In this document: positions 178 through 17,723 of the stretch, one piece after another | Numbering within the stretch: position 1 is the first letter of the stretch | Layout: every line of letters begins with the position of its first letter | From: a virus | Taxonomy: Duplodnaviria > Heunggongvirae > Uroviricota > Caudoviricetes | DNA length: 52,032 nt | Virus record (IMG/VR): IMGVR_UViG_3300035698_013589 | Coordinates: 1-52,032 of that record | Strand: one strand, 5' to 3' | The notes under the pieces: model-generated | Database searches by the model: none | Seen by the model: only the letters and a program-made list of their open reading frames with translations | What the model was told of the DNA's origin: nothing | Position numbers and translations under genes: made by a program

Positions 178-402
178 TTACTTGAAGATATTGATTAGAC
201 CGAATGCTGCTAGAACGATGATACCAACTGCTACTAATCCAAATCCTGCGAAGACAGTAGACTGTGTTGCGTCCATACCTTCTACAGTTTCATTAGATAA
301 TGAGTCTGTTGGGAGTGCTGCTCTAACTTGTGCAATTACTAGATAACCTACCATAAGTACGATACCGATTCCAATTGCTCCGATTGCTATTTGCATAAAC
401 AT
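178..402 (-). CDS. Major capsid-like protein (spindle-shaped-virus-type hydrophobic helical hairpin), copy 2
   Basis: 74 aa, two hydrophobic helices joined by a polar loop with an N-E-T sequon, as in fusellovirus VP1/VP3 and His1 MCP; GGAGG RBS; tandem paralogs. Confidence 0.7.
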   Translation of the reverse strand: MFMQIAIGAIGIGIVLMVGYLVIAQVRAALPTDSLSNETVEGMDATQSTVFAGFGLVAVGIIVLAAFGLINIFK

Positions 403-446
403 TTTTGTTTACCTCCGATTGTTGTTGTATAATCAAATAAATTTAT

Positions 447-671
447 TTATTTGAAGATGTTGATTAGTCCGAATGCTGCTAGTACGATTATTCCTACTGC
501 AATTAATCCAAATCCTGCGAATACAGTTGATTGTGTTGCATCCATTCCTTCAGTAGTTTCATTGCTTAGACTGTCTGTTGGCAGTGCTGCTCTAACTTGT
601 GCGATAACTAAATATCCTACCATTAATACTATTCCGATTCCAATTGCTCCAATTGCTATTTGCATAAACAT
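447..671 (-). CDS. Major capsid-like protein, copy 1
   Basis: 72/74 aa identical to copy 2; GGAGG RBS; directly downstream of a TATA motif at 726-743. Confidence 0.7.
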   Translation of the reverse strand: MFMQIAIGAIGIGIVLMVGYLVIAQVRAALPTDSLSNETTEGMDATQSTVFAGFGLIAVGIIVLAAFGLINIFK

Positions 672-725
672 TTTTTTTTGCCTCCACTGGTGTTATTCAC
701 CATTATACTAATAAATATAGTATTA

Positions 726-743
726 CCATTTATATATATATTT
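726..743 (-). promoter_or_regulatory. Putative late/structural promoter (AAATATATATATAAATGG)
   Basis: Same motif precedes the adhesin, 103-aa, 510-aa and 1146-aa genes. Confidence 0.65.
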
Positions 744-752
744 CTTTTCGCA

Positions 753-989
753 TCAATTTCCTTGGAGATACACTGAGAAGTCGAGGGGTCCAATTTTACG
801 GATTAAAATATAATTTCCAATCTTTTCCTTGGTTAAAACTGTTCGTTCCTTGTTGACATTGTTTAGAATTTTGCTGACTTGAGAATCAGATGCTGTACTA
901 AGAACTATCTCGCTCATGAAATACAGAGAATTAAATTTAGTATAAATCTCTTTGTTCTTAGTTAGTATCTTTTTCTGTTTCTTAGCCAT
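753..989 (-). CDS. Small basic hypothetical protein
   Basis: 78 aa, K-rich, tightly packed in the structural operon. Confidence 0.6.
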   Translation of the reverse strand: MAKKQKKILTKNKEIYTKFNSLYFMSEIVLSTASDSQVSKILNNVNKERTVLTKEKIGNYILIRKIGPLDFSVYLQGN

Positions 990-992
990 TTT

Positions 993-1304
993 TTATTTCG
1001 CAAACAGTAATAGGTATAATATTCCTGCTAATTCGAATACGAGTAACAAGAATATTATCTGTACGCTGAATATTTCAACAAATGAGCTTGTTGCATACAA
1101 GCTAGCAAACATGATACCAACAATCCACATAAGTGTGATGTTTTTTGTTTTTGCATATAACATTGCTTGATATACAAAGAATAAAATAACAACAACTATA
1201 CCCATTCCACCAAACGCAGTATCAAACATAGTATAAACTGCTGAAATCATATTTCCATCCATCAGTTCGGACCATCCTGTTGCATTTACTGGTATATTTG
1301 CCAT
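993..1304 (-). CDS. Small integral membrane protein (about 3 TM), probable virion/morphogenesis protein
   Basis: 103 aa, several hydrophobic segments, N-terminal NAT sequon; GGAGAG RBS within the upstream gene. Confidence 0.7.
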   Translation of the reverse strand: MANIPVNATGWSELMDGNMISAVYTMFDTAFGGMGIVVVILFFVYQAMLYAKTKNITLMWIVGIMFASLYATSSFVEIFSVQIIFLLLVFELAGILYLLLFAK

Positions 1305-1307
1305 TGT

Positions 1308-1814
1308 TTATCTCTCCACCACATCATTGCCTGTGAACAACTTTATTCCCATTAGTATATATGATAATGTTAATAATATTTTAAATGCTCCAATTTTATT
1401 TGGTATTAAATCATTATTGACATCATTTCCGAATAATAATATACGCACTTCTTCTGATAAGTGTTGACCAATAATATTATCTATCATGTTTATAAAACCA
1501 AACATGTAGTCGTCTATAACTTGAATAAACTTATATATAAACCCAAGTGACATCATATCTAACACTCTTGTAATCTGGTCTCCATCATCTTCCAACGCCC
1601 CCGACGGCTGAATAGTTTCTTCAAGTTCTGTTGTGAACTTATTTCCATACTCTTCCCCGCCAAAAGCATAACCGCCTGTCGATGTCTCATCAAATACTTT
1701 GTTACCATCCGAATCAACCAGTGCGGCCATCATGACACCTGCAGCTAGGTTGATTAAAATACTAAAAATAACTACCTTAGCTACCATGTTTGTCATTTTA
1801 TTTTCTACCTCCAC
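1308..1814 (-). CDS. Membrane protein (N- and C-terminal hydrophobic segments, acidic middle)
   Basis: 168 aa, overlaps the end of the adhesin gene; a second ATG at 1796 follows a GGAGG RBS. Confidence 0.7.
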   Translation of the reverse strand: MEVENKMTNMVAKVVIFSILINLAAGVMMAALVDSDGNKVFDETSTGGYAFGGEEYGNKFTTELEETIQPSGALEDDGDQITRVLDMMSLGFIYKFIQVIDDYMFGFINMIDNIIGQHLSEEVRILLFGNDVNNDLIPNKIGAFKILLTLSYILMGIKLFTGNDVVER

Positions 1815-4800
1815 CCTTTGCCAGAGCGTCCAGAACTGCTATAAGTATAGCTAAGGCAAGCACACTTGCGCTTAATCCGAACCATCCGAAGAGGACGAAT
1901 AATAAAGCCAAACCTGTTACTCCTAAAGCAGCCATGTTTGTGTTCATTGATGCATAAATTGCTACCACACTCAATAATATTATGAAGAACCAATTAAGGA
2001 AATCTGGACTAACGTGGTCTTGGATTCCTAAATCTAATCCCCATTCTTTGTTTACTAATTTTGAAACTGTTTTTGTTCCAACTTCATCATGAATTATTTC
2101 AATACTACCAACTAAAGTTCTATTTTCATATCCAGCAATCGGTACATATATAGCTCCAAGTTCTTGAACAGTTGTATATACAGGAGACTCGTATATTAAT
2201 GTTCCTTCTAAATTATCTGCGTATACTCTGAATTGTAATGATTCTGTTAAATTGTCGTCGTCAACATACGAAAACATTACTGATGGTTGTCCACTATAAT
2301 TAATAGCATCTATTGTGTATCTAACACCATTATAAAACCCTTCAGGTTCTGAGTCAAGATTTATGTCATACATGCTAATAACTTTTTCTCCACCAATGTC
2401 TGCACTATATGTTCCAATAATTTGTATAGGTTGATTGTCTGAATGAACTTCAACAATATATTCGTTGTTTTCGATTAAGTAATATCCAACCTTATTTTCG
2501 ATGTCTGTGTAATCTGATTGTATGTCTACTGCTCCTCCAGGAATAGATTTTTTAATATAAATACTTGGGTTTTCATAAAGGCCAAGTAAATCATCAATTA
2601 TGAATGAACCATATACGAAAGGTGTCACGTCTAAAGCTATCAAATAATATGTTCCATTTATTGATGTTTCATAATCAACAATTAATGTTCTATAATAACT
2701 TGTTCCTCCTGCGTAAGTTAAGAAAAACTTGAAAGTTTCATAATTACAATCAATCACTACACTGGTTGTACCGTTTGATATGTTAATTAAATCGTGAGTG
2801 TTTGTTGTATAATCATCACACTTAATTAATAATTCAGCACTTAAAGGAGCTGAGAAATCAAATGGTTGTCTAGTCGCTTCATCTAAAATTGTGAAGTATG
2901 CATAATATGTTAAGTATACATTTTGTGTGCTTACTTCTTGATAATCGAACACATAACTTTCAGATTGATTATTATAACCATCTTTTGAAAATGTCATGTT
3001 ATATGTTATTCCTGCATCAAGCGGTAAAGTTAATCCTGCTGACCCATCTGTAATATTATAAACTGTTGTTGTTGAAGTATTAGTGTTCAATAAACTTAAC
3101 ATGTAATCATCAACTGGGTTCTCTGTGTTTATATTATTATAAATAAATGTTATCACAGATTCAGAGCTATTGAAAGGTAAATCTATTTGATTTGGTATTT
3201 GTGTATACCAAGTCATTTTCTCTTCGAATATTTGTGAGTTATATACTTGTAAAGGTGTGTATGATAAATCAAGCCAATCACTTCCATTATATTCTTGTAG
3301 ATTAATATAATTATTACCAGCACCATCATCAGCAGCTATTCTAAGTTGAAGAACTGATTTATTAAGAGTGTCTAATGGAATCTCTACACTTGCACTTAAA
3401 CCGAAAGCTGTAACTTCCCAACCAGCAAAAGTTACATTAGCAGGTATTGTATAATTTGCATATATGTATGTAGTATTGAAAGATATTACTTCAGCAAATG
3501 TGTTTATGTCTCCATCAAATAAATTACTTGAATTACTTAAATCTGTAACATCACTAAAACCATAATTACCAGTTGCAAGCCCGCCACATGCTGTTGCTAC
3601 ATCTGCGCTTTCTTGTTCACACTCAGCATATTGTGCTTCCATTGTAACTGTGTATTCAATAGGAACATAGTGAGGATGTGTTAGTTCTACATCATATTCA
3701 CCAGCGATTATATTTTCAACATAGTTTTGTGAAGTTACATTGAAAAATTGTGAGTCTGATGAAGTTGGTGCATCTGTCTTATCAATATTAACTGTGTATC
3801 CTGTGAATGAATTTCCTGTGTATCTGTTGTTTGAAGTTATGTTGAACACTCCACCAATATAATAATATGTTGAAACTTCTACAATGTTTGTTCCACCGAT
3901 TGAATTGAATTTTATTTTTCCAATTCCGTATTCTTTTTCTAAATCTTTGATTTCTTTTTCTGATTTAACCTTTATACTGATAGCGTCTTCAACTTCTTTT
4001 GAAGTTAATTTTCTATTCTTGTTGAAATCTTTTCTCTTAGTTTCTTTTATTTTAGTATCGTCCAGAGCTTCTTCTCCTGTGAATATATCGGATATTGCTC
4101 CAAGCAATGACTTATCTTTCTTCTTACTAAAGTCCTTTCTATCAGGCTCAGAAAGGCTCTTATGAGCTAATATGATTTCATATGTATTGTCATCTATTTT
4201 GTTTGTGATATATATGAAATCTTCTGAGTTTTCTAATGCAAAGTCTATCCAATTTCCTGTATGAGTTTCAGGGTTCCAAGCAACAAAATGTCCTGGATAT
4301 ATTGTATCGTCTCTTGGATATAATATACCATCACTTTCAACAACATATTTTCTTATTAGTTTTGAATCATCATATTCAAACTCGAAATTATATCTATCAG
4401 TAAGTTTATTTGTTTTTATACTGTTTGTTATATCTTCACTTTCTATAGATACTGTAAGTCCGTTTTCTGTTTCATAAACTAATTTATCTGATTCAACCTC
4501 ATATTCATAATCAGGAATTTCTTCTGCTGTGTGGTCATCACTTGATGAGAATGTTACAACACATCTTTGAACAGGGTATCCTGTCAAATCTATTAATTCT
4601 GAAAACTCATATGTTGTTGTATTTATATCAAGGATTTCCCAATAATATACTTGCCCTGATATGTCACATGTTATATCAACACTTGCTTGGAATAAGTTAG
4701 CATCTGCAAATGTTGTTGACACATTTATTATATTATTAATAATATTATCAACTACAGTTCCATTCACAAGGATTGTTGAGATTGATGTATTAACTTCAAT

Positions 4801-7800
4801 TTCAGGTTCAGTGTAATCACCAATTTCTCCAATACCTAATGATTGAAGTGTTGAGTTTCCAAAGTTTCCTGAAGTATCAATACAACCAATCCACCAAGTT
4901 ATATTATCATATGCAGCTGTATATGTTCCATCTAATAATAAAGCATACTCAGCAGTTATGTTTGTTGTTCCTGTTGTTGTCATAACTTCAGTATCAAACG
5001 GTGAAGAAGCTGTAGTTGGTTGCACATATAATGTACAAGTATCAACAGTATCATATAAATCTACGTCTGCATCAAAATTAACTGTGCTTCCTATTTCTGT
5101 TGTTGCATCTGAATCATCAACAAGATTACTATAAGTTGTAATTCCGTGATTTAATATTTCAGTAGTTGATGAATTTGACCATGCACTATAATCATATCCG
5201 TCATGAACTCTGCAACTAAATATTACATCGTCTCCAATATCACTATAATTCTTCGCAAGAGTTATTCCTGTCTGGCCTATATCTGCTCCGTTTACATACC
5301 ATTTATATGATTCTGTAAGTGAATCAGTATCAATATCAGAAGTGTCACATGTTGCACTTAATGTGTCTTCTGAATAAATACCAGTGAAACTTATTACATC
5401 GACAGTTGGTATTCTGTTTTGAACTTCTGATGCAGATGAATTTAATGGTTCTGAATATAATGCTCCATCCCAAACTCTACATCCAACAGAAACATCTTTA
5501 AAGTGTATGAAGTATGAAGTCGCTAATGTTGATTGGTCTGGTGCTCCTACAGTTGCTCCATCAACATACCATGTATATTCGTAAGATAAAACATCATTTC
5601 CATCTGTGTCAGTACCAACACATGTTGCTGTAACCTGTGTATCGGTGTAAATAGTTCCAGGAGCAAGTGTTGCTGTCTGCATAACAGGTTGAGTGTTATC
5701 AATTGTAAGAGATGAACTATTAAGCCATGATGTATAAACTGTTCCATCATGTCCTCTACATCCAAGTATAATAACATCAGAGTTTACAAAATTGCTTGGG
5801 CCTAATGTTGATGATGTTCCAGTTGACACATCATTCACAAACCAATCATATTCATATGTAATTACATCATTTGAATCAACATCTGTTGCTACACAAGTTG
5901 CAACCAGTGTATCGTTTGCTGCAGCAGGGTCTGGATTTATATCAGATGATTGTATTATTGGTAAAGTGTTTGTAATTGTTAGAGTTGAACTATTTAACCA
6001 ATCTCCATAAGCTACTTGGTCGTAAACTCTACATCCAAGTATAACATCATCAAAGTTAACAAAATTAGTTGAAGGTAAATTTTGAGTTGTCGCATCTGCA
6101 ACTCCTTCAACATACCATTGATATTCATATGATAATGTATCTCCTGAATCAGTATCACTTCCAGTACATGTTCCAAGTAATGTGTCGTTTGTATATGCTG
6201 GGTCTGGAAGTATTGAAGAGGTATCTGTAACTGGGATTGTGTTTGTTATTGTAAGTGTTGAACTGTTTATCCATGATGTATATACAGTTCCATCATGTCC
6301 TCTACAACTTCCAATCACATCTTCGAAATTATCAAAGTTTGTATTACCTAATGTTTGTGAAGTTCCAACAGATACTGCTTCAACAAACCATTCATATTCA
6401 TATGTTATTACATCGTTTGAATCAGTATCAGTTGCAAGACATGTGATATTTAAATCATTATCTGTATATGCAGGAATAGGTGCAAGTGTTGATGATTGTA
6501 TTATTGGTAATGTATTTGTTATTGTAAGAGCTGTACTGTTTACCCATGATGAATACTCTGTGCCATCGCTTGCTCTACATTCAAATTCAACATCTTCGAA
6601 ATTATCAAAATAATTACTTGAAAGAGTATCTATAACACCAATTTCTCCAACATCCCAATACATTGCTTCTTCATGGAAAAATCCACATGAGAAATAATAA
6701 GGTGAACCACCATCAGCAATTCTTTCCCATTGTCCTGATGTGTTATAACAATCTCCTCTTGCACCATTATTACTAATAGATTCTATTCTTCCTATAAATT
6801 GCCCACTATTAAAACATGAACTTGGCACATCAAAGAAATCTTCTCTGTAACAACTTTTAACTCTCCATTTAGTATCTCCGTTCTGGTCCAAAGCTGCTGG
6901 TAAAGTGTAATTCATATAATAATATGCAGTTTGTCCGAATGCTGGCTGAACTCTTGAATTATAATTTCCATCATATCCACCATCATCAGCTCCACCACAA
7001 CATTCAGTTCCTTCTCTTCCATATGACCCTGTATCTAATCCACCACATTCTGTACTTATGTTTGCTTGTTCTTGATAACAAAGTCCTGGAGCTGAGAAAC
7101 TTTTAACTGATACTCCTTCTACATACCAATTATAAGATATTGTTAAATAATCATCATCTAAATCTGTCACATTACAATATCCTTCTAAAGTATCATTTGT
7201 GTATGCAGGGTCAGGTGAAACGATTGAAGCCTGAGTAACAGGAGCTGTGTTAGAAACCCCAACTGCTGTGCTATTTAACCAAGATGAATATTCATATGTG
7301 TCATACGCTCTACAACTTCCTATTACAGAATCTCCACTTGAGAAATATGCAGTTGTTAATGTTTGGCCTGTTTGACCAATAGCTGCTCCATTAACATACC
7401 AATTTCTTCCATAGAATAAAGAGTCTCCTGTATCAACATCTGTTCCATTACATAATAATTCTAAAGTATCATCTTCAAATGCTGGGTCTGGTATAATTTC
7501 ACTTGATGTCATAACTGGAGCTGTATTTGTGATTGTTAGAGTTGAACTGTTTAACCAACTACCATAAGATGTTTGGTCATACACTCTACAACTTAATATT
7601 ACATCATCGAAGTTTATGAAGTTTGATGCAGCTAAATTTTGAGTTGTTGCGTTTGCAACTCCTTCAACATACCATTGATATTCATAAGATAATGTGTCAG
7701 CAGTATCAGTGTCACTTCCAGTACATGTTCCAAGTAAAGTATCATTTGTATATGCTGGGTCTGGAAGTATTGAAGAGGTGTCTGTAACTGGGATTGTGTT

Positions 7801-10800
7801 TGTTATTGTAAGTGTTGAACTGTTTATCCAAACCCCATATGTTGTTTGGTCATATACTCTACAACTACCGATTACATCTTCAAAATTATCAAAGTTTGCG
7901 TTACCTAATGTTTGAGATGTTCCAACAGAAACTCCTTCAACAAACCATTCATATTCGTATGTTAATGCATCATTTGAATCGGTATCGGTTGCAACACATG
8001 TGATATTTAAATCATCGTCTGTATATGCAGGAATAGGCGCAAGTGTTGAGGTTTGAGTTACTGGGTCTGTATTAGATATATTAAGAGCTGAACTATTCAT
8101 CCAATCTCCATATGATGATTGGTCATAAATTCTACAACTTAATAATACCTCATCAAAATTTACAAAATTATCAGATGTTAAATTCTGAGTTGTTGCGTTT
8201 GCAACTCCTTCAACATACCATTGATATTCATATGTTAAAGTGTCTCCTACATCTATGTCTGTTCCAGTACAATTTCCAATCAGTGTATCATCTGTATATG
8301 CAGGGTCAGGAGTAAAAGATGATGTTTGTGTGATAGGTGCTGTGTTTGCTATATTTAATGTTGAACTATTTACCCAAGAACCATATGCTGTTTGGTCATA
8401 TACTCTACAACTACCGATTACACTATCTGATGAAGCAAAAAATGTATTAGCCAATGTTTGTGTTGTTTGTGATACTCCACCATTCACATACCATTGATAT
8501 TCATATGTTAATGCATCGTTTGAATCTGTGTCTGTTCCAACACATGTAATATTTAATGTGTCGTCTTCATAAGCAGGGTCAGGAGCAAGTGTTGATGTGT
8601 CTGTAACTGGGATTGTATTTGATATAGTTAGAGTTGAACTGTTTATCCAATCAGTATAATCAGATTGGTCATAACCTCTACAACTAAATATCACATCATC
8701 GAAATTAACAAAATTTGTTGATGTTAAATTCTGAGTTGTTGCATTTGCAACACCTTCAACATACCATTGGTATTCATAAGTTAAAGTGTCTAAATCTAAA
8801 TCTGTAATATTACAATTTCCTATAAGGGTATCATTTGTATATGCTGGGTCTGGTGTAATTTCAACATCATTAACAACAGGGTCAGTGTTTGAAACTACAA
8901 GAGCTGTGCTATTTAACCAACTTGAATAAACATAAGTGTCATATACTCTACAACTTCCTATTACACTATCACCATTTCCGAAATATGCAGTTGTTAAAGT
9001 TTGGCCTGATTGTCCTATATCTGCTCCATTAACATACCAATTTCTTCCATAGAATAAAGAATCTCCTGTATCAACATCTGTTCCATTACATAATAATTCT
9101 AAAGTATCATCTTCAAATGCTGGGTCTGGTATAACCACGCTTGATGTCATAACTGGAGCTGTATTTGTGATTGTTAGAGTTGAACTGTTTAACCAATCTC
9201 CATAAGATGTTTGGTCATATACTCTACATCCAAGTATTACATCATCAAAGTTTATGAAATTAGTTGATGGTAAATTTTGAGTTGTTGCATCAACAATTCC
9301 TTCAACATACCACTGATATTCATATGATAATGTGTCAGCAGTATCAGTGTCACTTCCAGTACATGTTCCAAGCAAAGTATCATTTGTATATGCTGGGTCT
9401 GGAAGTATTGAAGAGGTATCTGTAACTGGGATTGTATTTGTTATTGTAAGTGTTGAACTGTTTATCCATGTAGTATATGTTGTTTGGTCATATCCTCTAC
9501 AACTTAAAATAACATCCTCAAAATTTTCAAACTCTGATGAGTCTAAAACAATTCCCATTTCCCAATAAATTGATTCTTCATAAAACCTATAATTAAATCC
9601 AGCATTTCCTACGTCTGTATATAAAACCCACGTTGTACCGTTATAACAATGTGCTTTAGCTTGAGAAACGGTTGCACCAACATCATATCTTAATTGAATT
9701 ACATCTTCATTTGCATCCCAACAATCTTGTGGTAATGTATCATTTACTGTTTTAACATCTGCGTCTCCTAATTTAACTAACCATTTTGCACTTACTGCAC
9801 CAGCAGGTTTTGTATAATTTACTTCAACATATGCTCTAGCTGTTTGTGTGTTTTCTGCATATGTATCAAAATCTCCATCCCATGTATTCGCTTCTATGAA
9901 AAATGTAGATTCCCCATAATGATTATAATTACCAGTATCTAATCCACCACAAGATGTTGATGTTGTTGCTGTTTCTTGATAACAATACTCTCCTGTTACG
10001 CCAGTTGCAACACTAGCCCCTTCAACAAACCATTCATATTCTGCTGTTAATACGTCGTTTGTATCAGCATCAGAAACAATACATTCACCATCTAAATCAT
10101 CGTATGTATATGCTGGGTCTGGTGTTATGTCTACATTTTGTAAAACAGGATTATAATTTGATATTGTAAGTGTTGTACTATTTAACCAATCACTATATAC
10201 CTGTTGGTCATATATTCTACAACTTAATATAACATCATCATAATTAACAAAATTATTATTTGATAAATTTTGAGTTGTTGCATCTATAACTCCTTCAACA
10301 TACCATTGATATTCATATGTTAATATATCAGTTGTGTCTGTATCTGTTCCTGTACAATTTCCTATAAGAGTATTATTTGTATATGCAGGGTCTGGTGTAA
10401 TACTACTTGAAATCATAACTGGTGCTATATTATTTACTGTTTTAAATGAACTATTTACCCATTCAGATGCTTCAAAAAAATCAGTACCTTGACAACTAAA
10501 TATTATTGAATCTCCGTTTTGTGTTATAGTTGATGAAAGACTATTTACATTTACGTCTGAGCCTTCCTCATAAGCATTCAAACTATATCCATAGAGATTT
10601 CCATTTAATGCTCCAGTTATTGAATATAAATTTGTTTGATAAACAAAAACGTGTGGTTTAGCATTTCCTGGATTTGATATACTTGAACCTATATTTGAAT
10701 CACTAATCCATTGACTACCATCCCAATAAAATCCTTTAATTATACTGTTTTCACCAGAAACTAAATGCCATTTACCACCATACCAAAATACTGTTGGTGT

Positions 10801-13800
10801 TGAGTGTGCACCAGATGTTAATCCTGAAACAAGACTTGAATTGCTTACCCAAGTTGACCCACTCCATTGATACCCAATAAAACCACCACCTTGTGTTCCT
10901 GAAATTAATTTTATTGTATCTCCATCAACAAACACCGCTGGTGCTGAATATCCTCCAGTATTACTTAATCCTGAAACAACACTCGTATCAACATTCCATT
11001 GTGTTCCATTCCAAGAAAACCCATTAAAATGTCCATCTTGTGATTCTCCTACAACCATTTTTAATGTGCCGTTATCATAAAACACACTTGGTTTTGGATT
11101 AGCCCCAATATTAGTTAATCCTAATATAACATTAGAATCTGTATTCCAATCTGTTCCATTCCATAAATATCCGTTCCATGCTCCATTATCTTCTCCAATG
11201 ATTAATTTTAATCCTTCACTATCTTGAAATGTGGTTGGAGCAGAATGAAAACCAACATCTGTAAGTCCACTCACCACATCTGAATCAGATGCCCAATAAG
11301 AACCAACGCTTCCTGTTTCATTTAATGTTCCATCAATATACCATTTATAATTAAATCTTACAACACTTTCATCAACATCTGTAGCATTACAATATCCTTC
11401 AACTGTTGTATTTGAATAAAGTGCACTAGGAAGAATTGTTGTGGAATTAACAATAGGTGCTGTGTTTTCAATCTCTATAGATGTTCCATTAACCCATTCA
11501 GTATAATTTCCTCCATATCCTTGACAACTTAATAACCATTCTTGCCCACCTACAGTTTCAGTAATATTATTTACATTAACAGCCACTCCTTGTGTGTAAT
11601 ATGTTGTATTGCCTTCTGAATGTTCCACACCATTTAAATACCATTTCCAGAAATATCTAACATCGTCTGCATCTATTTCGTCAAATGCTTGACAAACACC
11701 TTCAAGAACAGTTCCAGTAACTGGTGTAGGGTCATCATATTGAATCTCCACAACCCCACTTGTAAAATCAGGAGGACTATTAATTACCTCAAACGCTTCT
11801 GTTAAAATTGTATTTCCTAAATCTGTTCCATCATACGCAGTAACATTTGCATAGTATGTTCCTTTCCAAGTATAAGTTGAAGACAATCCTGCAGATACTT
11901 CAAAAGTCATCCATTCTTCATAGAATCTCCAAGCACCAACACCATTTTCAGGATAACTACCGAAACTATCAGTAAAAGAATATACATTATTCCAATCTGT
12001 TCCATTATGACAATACATTTTTGTATATGCTGATGTGTCCAAATCGGCTGCAGTAATATATAATACAACTTTGTCCTCGTATGCTTCTAAACATTCAGTT
12101 GGTAAAGTGTTGTTAGCATATCTCACCAGATAACCATTAGAATATTCTCCGTGTTTTACAAACCAAGTTGCATTAAATGTATTAACTGGTTTAGTATAAT
12201 TCATATAAATTATACCATTTGTTGTATATCCGCTTCCTGCATATGTATTAAGATTTCCGTCACGACCAGGTTCACCAGTAGTATCACCATTACCACTCGT
12301 CTTCCAATTTGCATCTAAATATTCATCAGGTGTTATAACAGTAAAACTTCCTGGAGTTGTTTCTAAAATTGTATCATAGGTTCCATTTAACCATGTGACA
12401 TAAACACTAAGAGGGTCTCCATCTCCGTCAGTTGTTGTAAAATTTACATACAAATCATCCTGAGTTGTTGCTTGAGGATTTCCATTTAATAAATATAAAT
12501 TAGTATTTTCAAGAACAGGTACAGTGTTTTGAACTGTTGCAAATGATGAATTTATTGGATGTGAATCTATTTGATTATCATCTGCATAACATTCAAGTTT
12601 GATTTTATTATCTCTTGTATAATATGAGCTTGATAAATTTGCTACATTTGGATTTGACCCTTCTGCTGCTGTTGTTGTGCCACTTGTAATTAATGTATAA
12701 TTAGCATAACCCCAAAGCATTGCATCTTCATAAATTTCAGATTCTGGAATATTTAAATTATCATAACAACCATTACTTTTACATTGTGCACCTGTCGCCC
12801 AATCTCCATCTGTTATTTTGTATGTTGCTTCAGTAAAACTTGGGTTGTAAACACCACTTGTTGTTGAATATCCTATTTCGACCCAACCAGTTCCATTGTA
12901 ACATTGCATTTCAGCAGTATACGCTAATGCATTTGAATACATTCTCATCATTAATGTATCATTATCAGCATCCCAACAATCCTGAGCAGTAATCATTGGA
13001 ATATCATATTCACCATAAGTACCATGTTTAACTTTCCAATTTGTGAAAATAATATCAGCTTCAGGTGGTTTTGTATAATTCAAATAATGATATGTATAAG
13101 TATGTGAATATGAATCCGCATCTTCTTGCCAATATGTTTCGTTTGCTAAATACCATGCCCAATTATAATCTAGGTTTCCACCATCTTCATCTGTAAAATT
13201 ACAATAACCAGATATATCTTCACTTGCTCCTGGGTCTCCTGAAGTTGTTACACTTTGATAAACAGGTCTGTAATTATTTAATATTGTTCTATTAGCATTG
13301 TCTGTTGCAGAAGCTATACCATCTGTAATGTTACATTCAAGTCTCCAATCTTCACTTCCACTTATAACAGTATTACTTACATTTGCAACATTTCTCTCAA
13401 CCTCAAAATCTACAGTATAATTATAAGGATACTGACCATTATATTGAGCAACATCATCTTTATACCATGTCCATGTAGCATTTATTGTTTCAAGTTCATC
13501 AACATCGGCATAAGTACAATAACCAATTAAATCGTCATTTTCAGCTGGTTCATTATTAAAAGGTAAATCTTCTATTCTTGCAGTTGATGTAGGTGCATTT
13601 GTATCTATATATACTCCTGTTGAATTTATAGCTGTTGTTGCTTCACTATCAGCATCATATGCACGACATTCTAAAATCCAAGTATCTCCTGCAAATAAAT
13701 ATTCTTCAGTAATATTATATACATTACCATCTTCATTGTTTAGTTGTATTGCACTACCTTCTATATCTAACCATTCAATACTAATGGTTCCACCAGCCCA

Positions 13801-16800
13801 GAAAGAAATTGACCCTCTAATTTCAATATAATCTACTGGTTTATTATATGGATTAGCAATATCAATAGGTCTATCAAAATAAGTTCCGCTTGTCCCTCCA
13901 AGTGCATCAGACACAGTTACTGCAGTTCCATCTTCATAATAATATCTAACTTTCACATAAAATTGTGAATTTAAAGATGCATAAGCATAATCAACATTAC
14001 CAGTTACGCTAGTCACATAACCATCAACTTGTATTGTATCAAAAATTTTATCAGCACCATCTAATGGTATTGTTTGATAATAACTTAAATTTCTCCAACC
14101 CCAAGTATGTTCTGGTTGTATTACTCCATTCTTATACCAATCCCATTGAAATGCTGCTCCTCTATCAGTATCACTACCATTACAAGTTCCAACTAAAGTA
14201 TCGTTTGCATACACTGTTCTATCATTAGGATATATTGTAGCATTGTTTGTCCAAGGAACTAAATTATCAACTTGAAGTTCACTTGATGTTTCTGTAGCTA
14301 TTGAATAATCTTGACCATCATATGCTAAACATTCAACTTGCCAAATATCATTTTGTGTCACATTTGCATTTGGAACAGTATAAACTAAAGATTCATCTCC
14401 TTCTGGGCTTTCAGAAGAAGTGCCAGATATAAAATTTTCAACACCAAGACCTCTATCAACTGTAATATTATAATCATATGTGATATTATCACCATTAGCA
14501 TCAGTTGCATTACAATACACCAATAAATCTTGTGTGTGGTTTATTGGTACTGGTCCTAATCTAGCACTTTGAATAACAGGATATTCATTAATAAAAACTG
14601 AACTTGAATTTACATATGCTGAAGTTTCATATCCATCATCAGCTTGGCATGAAAATATATAAGTTCCCCCTGTTGTTGGATTATAAGTTGAAGTGTTTGT
14701 TTGAGTTGACACATCAAATCCATCATGTCCCCATATTACACTACCTTCATAAATAGCAAAAGTTCCTCCATAATTTGGTCCTAAACTTACATATTTTACT
14801 TGTAGAACATCACCATATAAACAATCCTCATGCACTGTTTTAGCATAAGTTAATGCCAATGCTCTTGTGCTAGCTGAACCAGTACGAGTTCCTAAAGATT
14901 CCCAATATGGTGCATATTCACCATTTTTAGCTAAACAAAATGTTTCCATCTTTGATGAACTATGAAATGAATATCTAGGAGCATATTTTATGTTAGCAAT
15001 TTCATCAGCAGGAATATTATCTGGTATTGTAAAGTTTTGATAAACAGGAACATTAATTGTACCACCACTTGTTGCTTCCCAATCTACACCTTCAGATGTT
15101 GTTGTTCCAGTTGCAACAGATACTCCATCTTTATACCATATATAATTATACTCAGCTGTGTTTGATTCAGGGTCTGTGTGTTGACAATATCCAGTAAAAA
15201 CATCTGCAATAGTTGCAACTGTTGGTGTCATAGTAACAACGGATGTTGTTGGTGCAGAATTATCAACAGTGAAAAAATATGATGTTGCTCCTAACCCATC
15301 AACATTATTATCTTCTGCTACACATTCAACATTATAATAACTATCAGGTTCAAAAAACATATTATTCATTTCTTCAACTGTTTCATTTACACCTTCAGGA
15401 ACTGAAAATTCTACTTCTATATACATATCATAAAGATAAATCCAACCATAACCATTAAAATCGCTAGGTTCAATAACCTGATACATTGTAATCTTTTCTG
15501 GAAACATACCATATTCAGCAATTAACCCTAATAATTCAGTAGTATAACCATAATACAAATATCTATCTGTTCCTGTTGTGTATAGATAATTTCTAAATAT
15601 TAATCCATAACCACTTCCTACATCAAAAAAATCTCCACATGCATCAGCATTCTCACAAATAGTAAAATTTTGTGACTCTTTTGTGTTCCAAGTTGTTATT
15701 CTTTTGGTCACATCCATTTCTGTATATGTTGAACTTCTATTCAATACAGATGATTGTAAAGATTCAATTGTTGTTCCAGCAGTATAAGTTGTTCTAGCCC
15801 TTGTATCAATGTTACCTGGGAACCCACCTTGATAAGTGTTTATAGGTTGACCATCATACATGTTTCCGTCATCAGACATATATACGTCTCCCCTATAATC
15901 AGAAGTTAAATAATGATGATACCTTGTTCCTTCTTTAATAATTCCAGTTCCATTTTTTGACAATGACCATGTTAATGTAGAATTTTCTCCTTGTGTGTTT
16001 GTTGGTTCACATAAAGCTTCAACATCATCACCACCATATTCTATACTTGGAAGTGCAAAATCATATTCATAAATACCAGCGCTTGAAACATGAACATATA
16101 ATTTATTATAATCATTTACATCTAATATTATTCCAGAAATCCATGCTTGCCCAAAATCTAAAACTTGATTAAATGATGAAAAATCTTTTGAAAATCTATA
16201 TACCGAATTAAATTCGTCATATGGTGCTGATGCTGATTCACGTTTAGCAAGTAACCAAGTATTGGTTCTGTCATCAAATAACATAGAAGAAAATAATCTT
16301 GATTGGTCAACGCTTGGTATATATGCATCTCTTCTAAAATCATGAACTAATCCAACAATTGTTCCAGTTTTTGTCATTTCATATATTTGTACACCTGTTG
16401 TTGTGTTTGCAGTATCATCCAAAACATAAAAATTATCAGAATTATCAGGATTAAATTCTATATCTAATGGGCATATTATAGTCTCTTTACCATTATGTAT
16501 TGTTGCTTCATATGCCCAACTACTACTAAATCTATGAATTTTACTTTCAGAAGCCCCACACTCAGTTGCATACCATTTACTGGCAGATGAATCGTAAAGA
16601 ACCGTTTGAAGCCTTGTTGAACTTGGTGCACCAGTTGGAGTAATAGTATCTACATATGTAAAATTCTCATCATATCTTTTAATTGTTGTTGTATACCCAA
16701 CAACATAATAATAAGGTGCTTCCCAGTGCATGTTTCCTGCCCACGATAATGATGGGTTAACTACAAATGTTCCAGAAGATGTTGTAGGTTCTAATGGTGT

Positions 16801-17682
16801 TGAAGAATCATCTAGTAAAAAAACTTCGCTAACAGTTGAATTTAAATTAACTGTTGATACTGTACTATTTGCTGAACCTAAATAATTTCCAGTTACATCA
16901 TAACCACTACATTCTAATTTAAATTGGTCTCCAGGATATGTCATATCATTAACAATAACAGGCACAGTTGTTCCGTTTGCATCACCAGCTCTTGTCATTG
17001 TGAAACCCCACATTTCATATAACCTAGCTTCGCTTGAAAAACCATTATATATTAATAATACCATATTATTATCCTCAAACCAACAATTAGAAGGAATTAT
17101 TAAAGTTTCATTTTCTATTGCGCCAGTAGAAATAAATTGTGTAATTGATTGTATTTGTGACATATCTGTTGCACTCTTTATACAATAAAAACCCAGTTGT
17201 CCACTACTAAATGGAGGAGACCCAGTTGTTTGATAAAGAAACTCAAGTTCTATAGAATCAAAACTATCAACATCATCAATAACATAATCCATTGTTAAAT
17301 TATAATATGTATAATAATTACCACTTGGCCAGCTTGTATATGTGCTAGGGTTTCCATCATAACAATTGGTTGGGTTTGCTGGAAGACCATCTAATCCTGG
17401 ATATTCCCAATAATTATTTACTCCAAATGTTTGTGGGTTCCATGAATCCCCGCTTTCAGAAACAACAGAAGAACCTTCATACAATTTCCAATCAAACATA
17501 ATATCATCGCCTTCTGGGTCTTCAACATAACAATTACCAATTACTTCTTGGCCATTAATAATATTAGGTGATGGGTCAATTGTAGAAATTGGGGCTGCAA
17601 AAACAGAAGTAGTTAGGACTATAAACAACATCAACATTAAGAAACTTCTAACATATTGTTTATTCTTCATAAAGAGCCCCAT
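1798..17682 (-). CDS. Giant secreted, membrane-anchored adhesin/receptor-binding glycoprotein with Ig-like repeats
   Basis: 5294 aa; N-terminal signal peptide; about 26 Cys-paired ~95-aa repeats (manual count: C-x-x-x-D...WY-x-x-G...C-R-x-x-D...W-x-N-S-S/T); two beta-propeller-like regions; many N-x-S/T sequons; C-terminal multi-TM anchor. Confidence 0.85.
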   Translation of the reverse strand: MGLFMKNKQYVRSFLMLMLFIVLTTSVFAAPISTIDPSPNIINGQEVIGNCYVEDPEGDDIMFDWKLYEGSSVVSESGDSWNPQTFGVNNYWEYPGLDGLPANPTNCYDGNPSTYTSWPSGNYYTYYNLTMDYVIDDVDSFDSIELEFLYQTTGSPPFSSGQLGFYCIKSATDMSQIQSITQFISTGAIENETLIIPSNCWFEDNNMVLLIYNGFSSEARLYEMWGFTMTRAGDANGTTVPVIVNDMTYPGDQFKLECSGYDVTGNYLGSANSTVSTVNLNSTVSEVFLLDDSSTPLEPTTSSGTFVVNPSLSWAGNMHWEAPYYYVVGYTTTIKRYDENFTYVDTITPTGAPSSTRLQTVLYDSSASKWYATECGASESKIHRFSSSWAYEATIHNGKETIICPLDIEFNPDNSDNFYVLDDTANTTTGVQIYEMTKTGTIVGLVHDFRRDAYIPSVDQSRLFSSMLFDDRTNTWLLAKRESASAPYDEFNSVYRFSKDFSSFNQVLDFGQAWISGIILDVNDYNKLYVHVSSAGIYEYDFALPSIEYGGDDVEALCEPTNTQGENSTLTWSLSKNGTGIIKEGTRYHHYLTSDYRGDVYMSDDGNMYDGQPINTYQGGFPGNIDTRARTTYTAGTTIESLQSSVLNRSSTYTEMDVTKRITTWNTKESQNFTICENADACGDFFDVGSGYGLIFRNYLYTTGTDRYLYYGYTTELLGLIAEYGMFPEKITMYQVIEPSDFNGYGWIYLYDMYIEVEFSVPEGVNETVEEMNNMFFEPDSYYNVECVAEDNNVDGLGATSYFFTVDNSAPTTSVVTMTPTVATIADVFTGYCQHTDPESNTAEYNYIWYKDGVSVATGTTTSEGVDWEATSGGTINVPVYQNFTIPDNIPADEIANIKYAPRYSFHSSSKMETFCLAKNGEYAPYWESLGTRTGSASTRALALTYAKTVHEDCLYGDVLQVKYVSLGPNYGGTFAIYEGSVIWGHDGFDVSTQTNTSTYNPTTGGTYIFSCQADDGYETSAYVNSSSVFINEYPVIQSARLGPVPINHTQDLLVYCNATDANGDNITYDYNITVDRGLGVENFISGTSSESPEGDESLVYTVPNANVTQNDIWQVECLAYDGQDYSIATETSSELQVDNLVPWTNNATIYPNDRTVYANDTLVGTCNGSDTDRGAAFQWDWYKNGVIQPEHTWGWRNLSYYQTIPLDGADKIFDTIQVDGYVTSVTGNVDYAYASLNSQFYVKVRYYYEDGTAVTVSDALGGTSGTYFDRPIDIANPYNKPVDYIEIRGSISFWAGGTISIEWLDIEGSAIQLNNEDGNVYNITEEYLFAGDTWILECRAYDADSEATTAINSTGVYIDTNAPTSTARIEDLPFNNEPAENDDLIGYCTYADVDELETINATWTWYKDDVAQYNGQYPYNYTVDFEVERNVANVSNTVISGSEDWRLECNITDGIASATDNANRTILNNYRPVYQSVTTSGDPGASEDISGYCNFTDEDGGNLDYNWAWYLANETYWQEDADSYSHTYTYHYLNYTKPPEADIIFTNWKVKHGTYGEYDIPMITAQDCWDADNDTLMMRMYSNALAYTAEMQCYNGTGWVEIGYSTTSGVYNPSFTEATYKITDGDWATGAQCKSNGCYDNLNIPESEIYEDAMLWGYANYTLITSGTTTAAEGSNPNVANLSSSYYTRDNKIKLECYADDNQIDSHPINSSFATVQNTVPVLENTNLYLLNGNPQATTQDDLYVNFTTTDGDGDPLSVYVTWLNGTYDTILETTPGSFTVITPDEYLDANWKTSGNGDTTGEPGRDGNLNTYAGSGYTTNGIIYMNYTKPVNTFNATWFVKHGEYSNGYLVRYANNTLPTECLEAYEDKVVLYITAADLDTSAYTKMYCHNGTDWNNVYSFTDSFGSYPENGVGAWRFYEEWMTFEVSAGLSSTYTWKGTYYANVTAYDGTDLGNTILTEAFEVINSPPDFTSGVVEIQYDDPTPVTGTVLEGVCQAFDEIDADDVRYFWKWYLNGVEHSEGNTTYYTQGVAVNVNNITETVGGQEWLLSCQGYGGNYTEWVNGTSIEIENTAPIVNSTTILPSALYSNTTVEGYCNATDVDESVVRFNYKWYIDGTLNETGSVGSYWASDSDVVSGLTDVGFHSAPTTFQDSEGLKLIIGEDNGAWNGYLWNGTDWNTDSNVILGLTNIGANPKPSVFYDNGTLKMVVGESQDGHFNGFSWNGTQWNVDTSVVSGLSNTGGYSAPAVFVDGDTIKLISGTQGGGFIGYQWSGSTWVSNSSLVSGLTSGAHSTPTVFWYGGKWHLVSGENSIIKGFYWDGSQWISDSNIGSSISNPGNAKPHVFVYQTNLYSITGALNGNLYGYSLNAYEEGSDVNVNSLSSTITQNGDSIIFSCQGTDFFEASEWVNSSFKTVNNIAPVMISSSITPDPAYTNNTLIGNCTGTDTDTTDILTYEYQWYVEGVIDATTQNLSNNNFVNYDDVILSCRIYDQQVYSDWLNSTTLTISNYNPVLQNVDITPDPAYTYDDLDGECIVSDADTNDVLTAEYEWFVEGASVATGVTGEYCYQETATTSTSCGGLDTGNYNHYGESTFFIEANTWDGDFDTYAENTQTARAYVEVNYTKPAGAVSAKWLVKLGDADVKTVNDTLPQDCWDANEDVIQLRYDVGATVSQAKAHCYNGTTWVLYTDVGNAGFNYRFYEESIYWEMGIVLDSSEFENFEDVILSCRGYDQTTYTTWINSSTLTITNTIPVTDTSSILPDPAYTNDTLLGTCTGSDTDTADTLSYEYQWYVEGIVDATTQNLPSTNFINFDDVILGCRVYDQTSYGDWLNSSTLTITNTAPVMTSSVVIPDPAFEDDTLELLCNGTDVDTGDSLFYGRNWYVNGADIGQSGQTLTTAYFGNGDSVIGSCRVYDTYVYSSWLNSTALVVSNTDPVVNDVEITPDPAYTNDTLIGNCNITDLDLDTLTYEYQWYVEGVANATTQNLTSTNFVNFDDVIFSCRGYDQSDYTDWINSSTLTISNTIPVTDTSTLAPDPAYEDDTLNITCVGTDTDSNDALTYEYQWYVNGGVSQTTQTLANTFFASSDSVIGSCRVYDQTAYGSWVNSSTLNIANTAPITQTSSFTPDPAYTDDTLIGNCTGTDIDVGDTLTYEYQWYVEGVANATTQNLTSDNFVNFDEVLLSCRIYDQSSYGDWMNSSALNISNTDPVTQTSTLAPIPAYTDDDLNITCVATDTDSNDALTYEYEWFVEGVSVGTSQTLGNANFDNFEDVIGSCRVYDQTTYGVWINSSTLTITNTIPVTDTSSILPDPAYTNDTLLGTCTGSDTDTADTLSYEYQWYVEGVANATTQNLAASNFINFDDVILSCRVYDQTSYGSWLNSSTLTITNTAPVMTSSEIIPDPAFEDDTLELLCNGTDVDTGDSLFYGRNWYVNGAAIGQTGQTLTTAYFSSGDSVIGSCRAYDTYEYSSWLNSTAVGVSNTAPVTQASIVSPDPAYTNDTLEGYCNVTDLDDDYLTISYNWYVEGVSVKSFSAPGLCYQEQANISTECGGLDTGSYGREGTECCGGADDGGYDGNYNSRVQPAFGQTAYYYMNYTLPAALDQNGDTKWRVKSCYREDFFDVPSSCFNSGQFIGRIESISNNGARGDCYNTSGQWERIADGGSPYYFSCGFFHEEAMYWDVGEIGVIDTLSSNYFDNFEDVEFECRASDGTEYSSWVNSTALTITNTLPIIQSSTLAPIPAYTDNDLNITCLATDTDSNDVITYEYEWFVEAVSVGTSQTLGNTNFDNFEDVIGSCRGHDGTVYTSWINSSTLTITNTIPVTDTSSILPDPAYTNDTLLGTCTGSDTDSGDTLSYEYQWYVEGVADATTQNLPSTNFVNFDDVILGCRVYDQVAYGDWLNSSTLTITNTLPIIQSSDINPDPAAANDTLVATCVATDVDSNDVITYEYDWFVNDVSTGTSSTLGPSNFVNSDVIILGCRGHDGTVYTSWLNSSSLTIDNTQPVMQTATLAPGTIYTDTQVTATCVGTDTDGNDVLSYEYTWYVDGATVGAPDQSTLATSYFIHFKDVSVGCRVWDGALYSEPLNSSASEVQNRIPTVDVISFTGIYSEDTLSATCDTSDIDTDSLTESYKWYVNGADIGQTGITLAKNYSDIGDDVIFSCRVHDGYDYSAWSNSSTTEILNHGITTYSNLVDDSDATTEIGSTVNFDADVDLYDTVDTCTLYVQPTTASSPFDTEVMTTTGTTNITAEYALLLDGTYTAAYDNITWWIGCIDTSGNFGNSTLQSLGIGEIGDYTEPEIEVNTSISTILVNGTVVDNIINNIINVSTTFADANLFQASVDITCDISGQVYYWEILDINTTTYEFSELIDLTGYPVQRCVVTFSSSDDHTAEEIPDYEYEVESDKLVYETENGLTVSIESEDITNSIKTNKLTDRYNFEFEYDDSKLIRKYVVESDGILYPRDDTIYPGHFVAWNPETHTGNWIDFALENSEDFIYITNKIDDNTYEIILAHKSLSEPDRKDFSKKKDKSLLGAISDIFTGEEALDDTKIKETKRKDFNKNRKLTSKEVEDAISIKVKSEKEIKDLEKEYGIGKIKFNSIGGTNIVEVSTYYYIGGVFNITSNNRYTGNSFTGYTVNIDKTDAPTSSDSQFFNVTSQNYVENIIAGEYDVELTHPHYVPIEYTVTMEAQYAECEQESADVATACGGLATGNYGFSDVTDLSNSSNLFDGDINTFAEVISFNTTYIYANYTIPANVTFAGWEVTAFGLSASVEIPLDTLNKSVLQLRIAADDGAGNNYINLQEYNGSDWLDLSYTPLQVYNSQIFEEKMTWYTQIPNQIDLPFNSSESVITFIYNNINTENPVDDYMLSLLNTNTSTTTVYNITDGSAGLTLPLDAGITYNMTFSKDGYNNQSESYVFDYQEVSTQNVYLTYYAYFTILDEATRQPFDFSAPLSAELLIKCDDYTTNTHDLINISNGTTSVVIDCNYETFKFFLTYAGGTSYYRTLIVDYETSINGTYYLIALDVTPFVYGSFIIDDLLGLYENPSIYIKKSIPGGAVDIQSDYTDIENKVGYYLIENNEYIVEVHSDNQPIQIIGTYSADIGGEKVISMYDINLDSEPEGFYNGVRYTIDAINYSGQPSVMFSYVDDDNLTESLQFRVYADNLEGTLIYESPVYTTVQELGAIYVPIAGYENRTLVGSIEIIHDEVGTKTVSKLVNKEWGLDLGIQDHVSPDFLNWFFIILLSVVAIYASMNTNMAALGVTGLALLFVLFGWFGLSASVLALAILIAVLDALAKGGGRK
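6010..9470. repeat. Intragenic near-identical duplications in the adhesin gene
   Basis: ~7383-7830 matches ~9021-9468 (offset 1638 nt); ~6010-6270 matches ~7567-7830 (offset 1557 nt). Confidence 0.9.
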
Positions 17683-17687
17683 TATAG

Positions 17688-17723
17688 ATATATAAATACA
17701 CTAACTCATTTATATATATATTT
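17688..17723 (-). promoter_or_regulatory. Putative late promoter of the adhesin operon, within a 10-bp inverted repeat
   Basis: 17704-17723 is identical over 20 bp to 26904-26923; ATATATAAAT-N10-ATTTATATAT at 17688-17717. Confidence 0.65.

Follow-up and report, generated by a model that had tools for sequence, protein, structure and literature searches.

A candidate modular receptor-binding fibre built on split Ig-like domains in a probable archaeal virus

The viral record IMGVR_UViG_3300035698_013589 encodes a giant protein in which a long array of Ig/PKD-like units is interrupted, repeatedly and at one and the same loop, by whole passenger domains. The gene probably specifies the modular receptor-binding fibre of a large archaeal virus, probably of spindle type and likely infecting a DPANN host; here we infer the location in the virion, the binding activity, the type of ligand or glycan, the virion morphology and the host. 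The arrangement is carried by profile matches along the whole protein, by a structural model of one interrupted unit, and by comparison with the fibres of related viruses and with giant proteins of DPANN archaea.

Results

The fibre gene and its surroundings

The record is linear, 116 kb long and estimated to be ~70% complete, and the window (the whole stretch of DNA analysed here, 52,032 nucleotides) corresponds to its first 52 kb. The original prediction, made from the window alone, placed a single 5,294-aa reading frame over about 30% of it, and an uninterrupted ORF was found to occupy 30.5% (Table 1), with a G+C content (~0.33) that is uniform over the gene and its flanks. The encoded protein contains 85 cysteines and 131 N-x-S/T sequons, and its hydropathy profile reveals three hydrophobic segments within residues 5224-5292. 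Upstream of the gene, a TATA-type promoter motif is present, and the sequence AAATATATATATAAA[T/C] was found in the four upstream regions that were read directly, those of the fibre, 74-aa, 103-aa and 510-aa genes. Two in-frame ATG codons, for Met1 and Met5 (window 17670-17682, - strand), lie 9 and 21 nt past a second TATA-like run; translation may start at Met5 (MKNKQ...), and the signal peptide is unaffected either way. The gene directly upstream (17722-20070, - strand) encodes a Gln/Gly/Ser-rich, low-complexity protein of 782 aa, whose C-terminal motif RGPYKKRRY has counterparts, RGPYKRQ and RGPYNKQR, at the equivalent place in contigs L007 and L008.

Pfam and PHROG searches returned no usable family for the fibre, and likewise for most neighbouring genes. 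A word-based protein search with residues 1-2420 yielded no long relatives, viral-contig scans and an initial genome-contig scan yielded no related DNA, and a tblastn search with unit 12 against cultured phage and virus records gave no match.

Table 1. Features of the fibre gene and of its downstream neighbours, with positions in the window and residues of the fibre protein.
Feature	Window position	Strand	Residues, content and support
Promoter motif, TATA-type	17683-17730	-	AAATATATATATAAAT; upstream of the fibre gene
Fibre gene	1798-17682	-	One uninterrupted ORF, 5,294 codons (5,294 aa)
Signal peptide	17596-17682	-	1-29; hydrophobic 10-36, ..VFA/AP
Unit 1, split	16828-17586	-	N half 33-73, orphan insert ~74-230, C half 231-285; E 2e-4, 1.6e-4
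Linear domain	16051-16827	-	286-544, between units 1 and 2; NHL/SGL-type propeller lead
Unit 2, split	15259-16050	-	N half 545-582, orphan insert, C half 749-808; E 0.028, 0.003
Unit 3, split	14587-15255	-	810-864, orphan insert ~865-983, 984-1032; E 1.8e-15, 7e-12
Unit 5, split	13603-14256	-	1143-1199, orphan insert WRNLS... ~1200-1314, 1315-1360; E 3.6e-14, 3.4e-11
Unit 7, split	12526-13269	-	1472-1524 and 1661-1719; CYQE-family insert ~1521-1676
Unit 8, no Cys	11731-12519	-	N half 1722-1770, CYQE-family domain 1775-1935, putative C half 1940-1984
Unit 10, split	10429-11463	-	2074-2126, five-bladed propeller 2127-2371, C piece from ~2368-2372 to 2418
Unit 12, split	9436-10152	-	2511-2557, CYQE-family domain 2562-2712, 2713-2749; nesting seen in model
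Units 13-20	7249-9435	-	Eight clean 91-aa units; profile E 1e-43 to 1e-48
Unit 21, split	6514-7248	-	CYQE-family domain 3528-3685, eight Cys
Units 22-26	5149-6513	-	Five clean units; profile
Conserved C-terminal base	1807-5148	-	4179-5294; homology to other fibre C-termini
Layout of the base			Module 4179-4520, Lys-rich linker, small beta module 4590-4683, CYQE-family 4684-4836, module 4837-5223, three hydrophobic helices 5224-5292
Downstream same-strand genes	178-1814	-	168, 103 and 78 aa, then two 74-aa genes
Capsid-like genes, 74 aa	178-402 and 447-671	-	Tandem copies; two hydrophobic helices

An array of Ig/PKD-like units

A profile made from 14 clean 91-aa units was run along the fibre protein and located 26 Ig/PKD-like units of ~91 aa each between residues 33 and 4178, 17 of them intact. 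About 26 disulfide-paired Ig-like units had been predicted; the number stands, and a Cys pair at the expected strands B and F is found in 25 of the 26, U8 having none. Straight after the first Cys, 16 units in the region of clean Ig units (window 5149-10425, - strand) display a conserved acidic cluster, C-x-x-[ST]-D-x-D-x-x-D, similar to the Ca-binding motifs by which Ig-like extender arrays of bacteria are stiffened. The units are at most 92% identical to each other in protein and at most 91% in nucleotide sequence, and TRF detects just one 273-nt array with 64% matching, which makes a collapse of the array during assembly unlikely; orthologues of 4,927 and 4,044 aa are found in independent assemblies. 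The best Pfam score for the Ig units (Ig_2, 24.9 bits) lies under the 27-bit cut-off, no Pfam PKD match to the fibre was obtained in the Pfam search, and archaeal PKD proteins make up the nearest Atlas clusters.

Units interrupted at a single loop

Six units (U3, U5, U7, U10, U12, and U21) were matched in two pieces that jointly cover the profile once. With a round-2 profile, the split pieces of these units rise to E values of 1e-11 to 1e-15, and both halves of U1 and U2, which are outside its training set, are also detected. As decoys, 400 windows were drawn from stretches of the protein outside its Ig units. U1 and U2 outscored 400/400 decoys with either half, as did U8 with its N half; the putative C half of U8 was equalled or beaten by 54/400. 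Profile evidence hence supports eight split units, and the ninth (U8), for which only the N half is backed, is doubtful.

The position of the break is well defined. In four split pairs of this fibre, the last profile position of the N piece is 55-58; in 21 split pairs from its relatives it mostly lies at 50-59, and the break sits directly after the W-Y-x-x-G strand. The proposal that the inserts occupy one shared place in the Ig unit is consequently upheld both here and in the relatives (profile break ~50-58/59), the three units that had been singled out as examples (EWFVEGASV, KWYIDGTL, and DWYKNGVI) are all real, and the propeller assigned to ~10570-11300 converts exactly to 10570-11304. Each half of a split unit retains one Cys of the conserved pair, and the disulfide would be expected to staple the two halves across the insert. 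Split units are unevenly distributed, with seven or eight among the distal 12 units and one among the proximal 14.

Structural models

Residues 2420-2840, comprising a clean unit, split unit 12 and another clean unit, were modelled with AlphaFold2 from an alignment of 93 rows, 28 of which are relatives with the same nested arrangement. The model is confident (mean pLDDT 94.1, pTM 0.77; Ig units pLDDT ~96), and unit 12 repeats the strand pattern of its neighbours, to which it adds a beta-rich stretch (model residues ~147-290) placed between strand C' and a short strand-plus-turn leading up to strand F. When the model was compared exhaustively with solved structures, single Ig, FN3 and PKD structures of 90-97 residues could be superposed on 86-95 residues at 2.3-2.8 A, the matched region extending over model residues 89/92-330; among them, the archaeal PKD domain 4xed_A matches unit 12 with Z 8.9 (92/97 residues at 2.6 A) and the FN3 domain 1lwr over 95/96 residues at 2.8 A, 3vmn_A being a further single-domain match. 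Two-domain tandems align over 171-180 residues within 90/92-420/421, and the three-domain tandems 6x3a_A and 8bnq_B over 256-259 residues within 1-421, skipping the insert. The superposition of single-domain structures across the insert indicates that the two halves of unit 12 form one sandwich, and the behaviour of the three-domain tandems identifies a loop insertion in an otherwise normal tandem Ig axis. In the model, the 150-aa beta domain thus projects from the C'-E loop of unit 12; linear adjacency to complete Ig domains, which the original prediction had named as the outcome that would count against it, is not what the model of this unit shows.

A second AlphaFold model (residues 1989-2509) was based on 16 rows covering the propeller only, and it is confident only at 2128-2371 (pLDDT 85-97), the Ig parts having pLDDT <50. 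That the propeller and the orphan inserts are nested is accordingly indicated by split profile matches. A MAFFT alignment of the target 1722-2509 was dropped, as it placed CYQE-family rows over the propeller.

The passenger domains

The inserts had been described as unrelated domains, and this applies to part of them. Four (those of units 7, 8, 12 and 21) belong to a single family, together with a non-nested copy at 4684-4836, and the propeller and the four orphan inserts are distinct. The shared domain, here termed the CYQE family, is a beta domain of ~150 aa with two conserved Cys pairs and the motifs CYQETAN..CGG, DGDW.T, NYTKP, CYNGT.W, and YEEAM.W. A 37-sequence profile recovers the five fibre copies with E values of 1e-18 to 6e-50 (2.8e-30 for the domain in U8), the copy in U7 being devoid of the N-terminal part, CYQE motif included. 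The fifth copy sits between two small modules of the base, outside any Ig unit, so that the domain serves as a nested passenger and as an in-line module alike. Unit 12 (Ig halves plus CYQE-family domain), used as the query of an exhaustive search, returned 914 cluster representatives at E <= 1e-3, many of which match the insert alone, some right behind the signal peptide of 190-350-aa proteins. No Pfam family corresponds to the domain, the profile found nothing below E 0.2 among PDB sequences, language-model look-alikes all score below 0.8 (top lead F5/8 type C, 0.76), and the whole-model structure search, dominated by Ig tandems, returned no row confined to model residues 145-292. By these searches, the CYQE-family domain constitutes a large, so far unannotated family.

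The insert of unit 10 is a five-bladed propeller, with five repeats of one strand pattern. Its fold matches GH43-type five-bladed propellers (3qed_A, Z 20.6, 228 residues at 2.9 A), and its best local look-alikes are fucose-binding propeller lectins, with 8-16% sequence identity to the structural matches. Homologues at 40-47% identity are found in ~486-aa proteins made of a signal peptide, the propeller, a small beta domain and membrane helices. In these proteins (P0160-P0175; two annotated in Omnitrophica MAGs), the propeller is combined with a CarboxypepD_reg domain and a multi-helix C-terminus, and they look like a miniature of the fibre design. Both the propeller and the CYQE-family domain hence occur outside Ig units, and the passengers can be regarded, from these homologies, as autonomous modules.

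The orphan inserts of units 1, 2, 3 and 5 have no relatives among 150 matches and show marginal matches only to the CYQE-family profile, the insert of unit 5 (WRNLS...) providing weak jelly-roll leads only. Residues 286-544 have language-model look-alikes at 0.94 that consistently point to an NHL/SGL-type family, taken here as a lead only. This domain and the CYQE-family copy at 4684-4836 are linear neighbours and not loop inserts, a correction to the original picture.

A conserved base in a variable fibre family

The C-terminal 1,100 aa of the protein, here called the base, align colinearly with the C-terminal ends of seven further proteins (1,336-4,927 aa) and are homologous to three more proteins that adjoin capsid-like genes. 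Two of its modules (~4590-4683 and ~4850-4930) looked carboxypeptidase-regulatory-like by eye; this reading found no Pfam support, and the two modules are left unassigned. The gene order that follows the fibre (~135-165 aa, ~80-117 aa, ~75-80 aa, and 74-aa genes) is kept in five other contigs, two identified from base homologues and three via the 74-aa protein, and a tyrosine integrase lies farther along in three of them.

The insert content of related viruses, whose comparison had been proposed as a check, varies. The base is present in all fibres examined, whose lengths are 1,336, at least 1,960, 2,312, 2,846, 4,044, 4,927 and 5,294 aa, and the distal part ranges from ~470 to 4,180 aa, with arrays that differ in the number of Ig units, CYQE-family domains and propellers. 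This virus and contig L007 have 74-aa proteins with 86-89% identity, yet their fibres share only 31-37% identity in the base and are nowhere colinear in the distal part.

The 74-aa family comprises at least 911 sequence clusters in the JGI, ENA, Logan and Tara metagenomes. The gene usually occurs in 1-3 tandem copies, with 78-100% identity among the matches listed, and the family marks an abundant and apparently undescribed virus group. No homology of the 74-aa proteins to known capsid proteins was detected, and a tblastn search against cultured phage and virus records was empty; the terms "spindle virus" and "capsid" are consequently founded on their size, two hydrophobic helices, tandem copies and abundance. 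Two members of the family are located in a Pacearchaeota MAG contig. This contig (L018; GCA_002690445.1, NZER01000068.1, Candidatus Pacearchaeota MAG) harbours a fibre of at least 1,960 aa, the small genes, two 74-aa genes and a tyrosine integrase, and the module ends beside an NMT1-family gene, with a flank that is possibly cellular. It may be a provirus, and would then hint at Pacearchaeota as the host. Another related viral contig, L019 (66 kb), has genes for family-2 and DIE2/ALG10-type glycosyltransferases right after the capsid-like gene (10343-12246), which suggests virus-encoded glycosylation of structural proteins.

The same modules in DPANN proteins

Among the best 150 relatives, Ig halves form 81 intact pairs, 44 pairs around a CYQE-family domain and ten around something else. 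Three of these ten gaps (328-340 aa) are LVIVD propellers in a single 4,959-aa protein of Nanoarchaeia, and another one (380 aa) is an RCC1-like propeller. Gaps filled by whole propellers leave no room for hidden half-units, and the bracketing of LVIVD and RCC1 propellers by the same Ig family in other proteins bears out the notion of a modular socket. The related proteins are mostly from DPANN archaea, the best matches being giant proteins of Nanoarchaeia and of a Thermoproteota MAG, and one giant relative sits among cellular genes (histone, tRNA synthetase, and channel genes). In species genomes, a pattern scan located the domain chiefly in MAGs of Woesearchaeota, Nanoarchaeota and Nanohalarchaeota, with further occurrences in two Methanosarcinales MAGs and one small bacterial-MAG contig.

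The DPANN giants MGV8168983.1 and MGV8161935.1 (Nanoarchaeia; LamG-like according to NCBI) contain true homologues of the fibre modules, with the same Ig family, CYQE-family domain and nesting. They differ in being cellular genes and in their passengers (LVIVD, beta-helix, LamG, and HINT), and the two DPANN giants examined (P0002 and P0007) are devoid of C-terminal hydrophobic helices, unlike the fibre. The closest cellular relative (P0002; L001 10001-24208, Nanoarchaeia, 4,735 aa) has beta-helix, LamG and PT-HINT/intein-splicing matches, and a second protein, of at least 3,005 aa, is encoded just upstream of it, pointing to a cluster of giant surface genes.

Discussion

Several features jointly fit a receptor-binding fibre of the virion, to which the labels "multi-receptor" and "adhesin" might also apply: the base is conserved and the distal array hypervariable, the gene is co-regulated and syntenic with capsid-like genes, sequons are abundant and passengers are lectin-like. 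In such a fibre, the protein would be exported via its signal peptide and N-glycosylated, and the three C-terminal helices and the 1,100-aa base would anchor it in a lipid-containing capsid of 74-aa two-helix proteins. The 26 disulfide-stapled Ig/PKD-like domains would form a stalk leading out from the base, in which the 14 base-proximal units, almost all of them plain, would act as extenders; such fibres would be about 100 nm long and sit at the tail. Since the two ends of a passenger lie together, it would stick out sideways from the C'-E loop while the stalk runs on, and the passengers (four CYQE-family domains, a five-bladed lectin-like propeller and four orphans) may bind different host-surface ligands, probably glycans. 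Swapping of passengers and of whole units would then alter host range.

Another reading concerns where the fibre is displayed. The nearest relatives of its Ig units with nested passengers are giant proteins in cellular Nanoarchaeia genomes, presumably located on the cell surface, and the signal peptide and C-terminal membrane helices would suit a cell membrane equally well, which makes a cell-membrane location possible. The infected (DPANN) cell, instead of the virion, could hence carry the fibre on its membrane, where it might function in attachment to the cell's own partner, cell-to-cell spread or superinfection block. We consider this unlikely, however, given that the base is common specifically to genes adjoining capsid-like genes in viral contigs, that the fibre gene has the same promoter motif as the capsid-like genes, and that viral receptor-binding proteins usually combine, as the fibre does, a conserved base with a hypervariable distal end. 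A somewhat slimmer chance attaches to a further reading of the module pool that the fibre shares with DPANN giants: if the DPANN proteins serve to grip the hosts of these archaea, the borrowed modules may bind the partner surface too, or instead, or re-wire the attachment of the infected cell.

The array might also be mainly a glycosylated spacer or shield, with decorative inserts, leaving host recognition to other proteins, such as the 1,510-aa or 782-aa neighbours. The number of sequons would be in keeping with a shield, as would passengers devoid of a demonstrated ligand, the CYQE-family domain having no known fold relative. Decoration does not readily account, however, for a passenger set that turns over between close viruses while their capsid-like genes keep 86-89% identity, nor for the resemblance of the propeller to carbohydrate-active and lectin propellers, and in bacterial adhesins the domains that bud from split Ig domains are ligand binders (PMC12077191); we regard a spacer role as improbable. 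Lastly, although Ig half-profiles cross-match slightly, strands B and F being alike, and the C half of U8 is not significant, it is very hard to believe that the splitting is an alignment artefact and the inserts ordinary linear neighbours of complete Ig domains, because the halves of unit 12 are one domain in the model, the N and C pieces cover the profile once with one Cys each, and the 328-380-aa inserts of relatives are taken up by whole propellers.

A receptor-binding fibre with these properties would have several implications. In an abundant virus group with more than 900 clusters of its 74-aa protein, marine ones included, a host-range determinant appears identifiable and highly variable. 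The modules shared between fibre and DPANN proteins offer a tangible way of learning which viruses infect DPANN archaea, and by what means, and an unannotated domain family combined with a reusable Ig "socket" can assist in finding ligand-binding modules in DPANN and archaeal-virus proteins. If binding to the partner were true, the virus would be riding a three-level symbiosis.

Comparison with known systems

The closest parallel to this design is found in bacterial RTX adhesins, in which ligand-binding domains are recognised by their budding from Ig-like split domains (PMC12077191). As in AhLap, FrhA and MpIBP (PMC12077191; PMC10865825), the fibre is of megadalton scale and relies on tandem Ig-like extenders, passengers whose two termini lie side by side interrupt an Ig-like domain, the remainder of which follows them, and the passengers gather at the end away from the anchor. 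The split topology is matched by the model for unit 12 and by profile for seven more units. The differences are equally clear. The passengers of RTX adhesins include carbohydrate-binding modules, and the passenger families found here are different; the GG.G.D pattern of the RTX nonapeptide is absent from the whole fibre protein, and instead of a type I secretion signal the fibre possesses a Sec signal peptide and a C-terminus of three hydrophobic helices. Its polarity is opposite, with a C-terminal anchor and an N-terminal tip, it comprises eight or nine split domains against two or three in RTX adhesins, and its carrier is an archaeal virus, with no detectable sequence relationship between both systems.

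Among archaeal viruses, the SSV19 tailspike VP4 contains inserted segments that are flexible, and a three-helix bundle at its C-terminus connects it to a capsid made of the two-helix VP1 (PMC9351363); in nanohaloarchaeal spindle viruses, adhesin genes exceed 1,900 codons (bioRxiv 10.1101/2025.02.15.638363). The fibre gene resembles that of fusellovirus VP4 in being, on the present reading, the largest structural gene, accompanied by small two-helix hydrophobic capsid or capsid-like proteins, with a product that is probably glycosylated and presumed to recognise host glycans; in both cases, flexible segments are inserted in a core and a C-terminal hydrophobic helical element could join the capsid. 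VP4, however, is a 1,236-aa protein with a GH76-like, pseudo-sixfold helical core, whereas the fibre is an Ig stalk four times longer that lacks any Pfam or PHROG match to the VP4 type, and the likeness of the capsid-like proteins is one of size and helices. A beta-sandwich interrupted by a whole domain and then completed, as in the fibre, is also seen in the macroglobulin/CUB arrangement of complement C3, which is among the fold matches. The insertions of C3-type proteins are single and fixed in a non-repetitive protein, whereas the fibre reuses one loop like a cassette.

To our knowledge, a split-Ig passenger design is known from bacterial giant adhesins and not from an archaeal virus. The kind of design is hence familiar from bacteria, and it is the carrier, the scale, the domain families and the sharing between virus and DPANN archaea that are new here. 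The combination of extenders, split domains and budding binders that characterises bacterial giant adhesins now extends to archaea and their viruses, and its emergence from unrelated parts, with reversed polarity, argues that it represents a general solution for long multivalent fibres.
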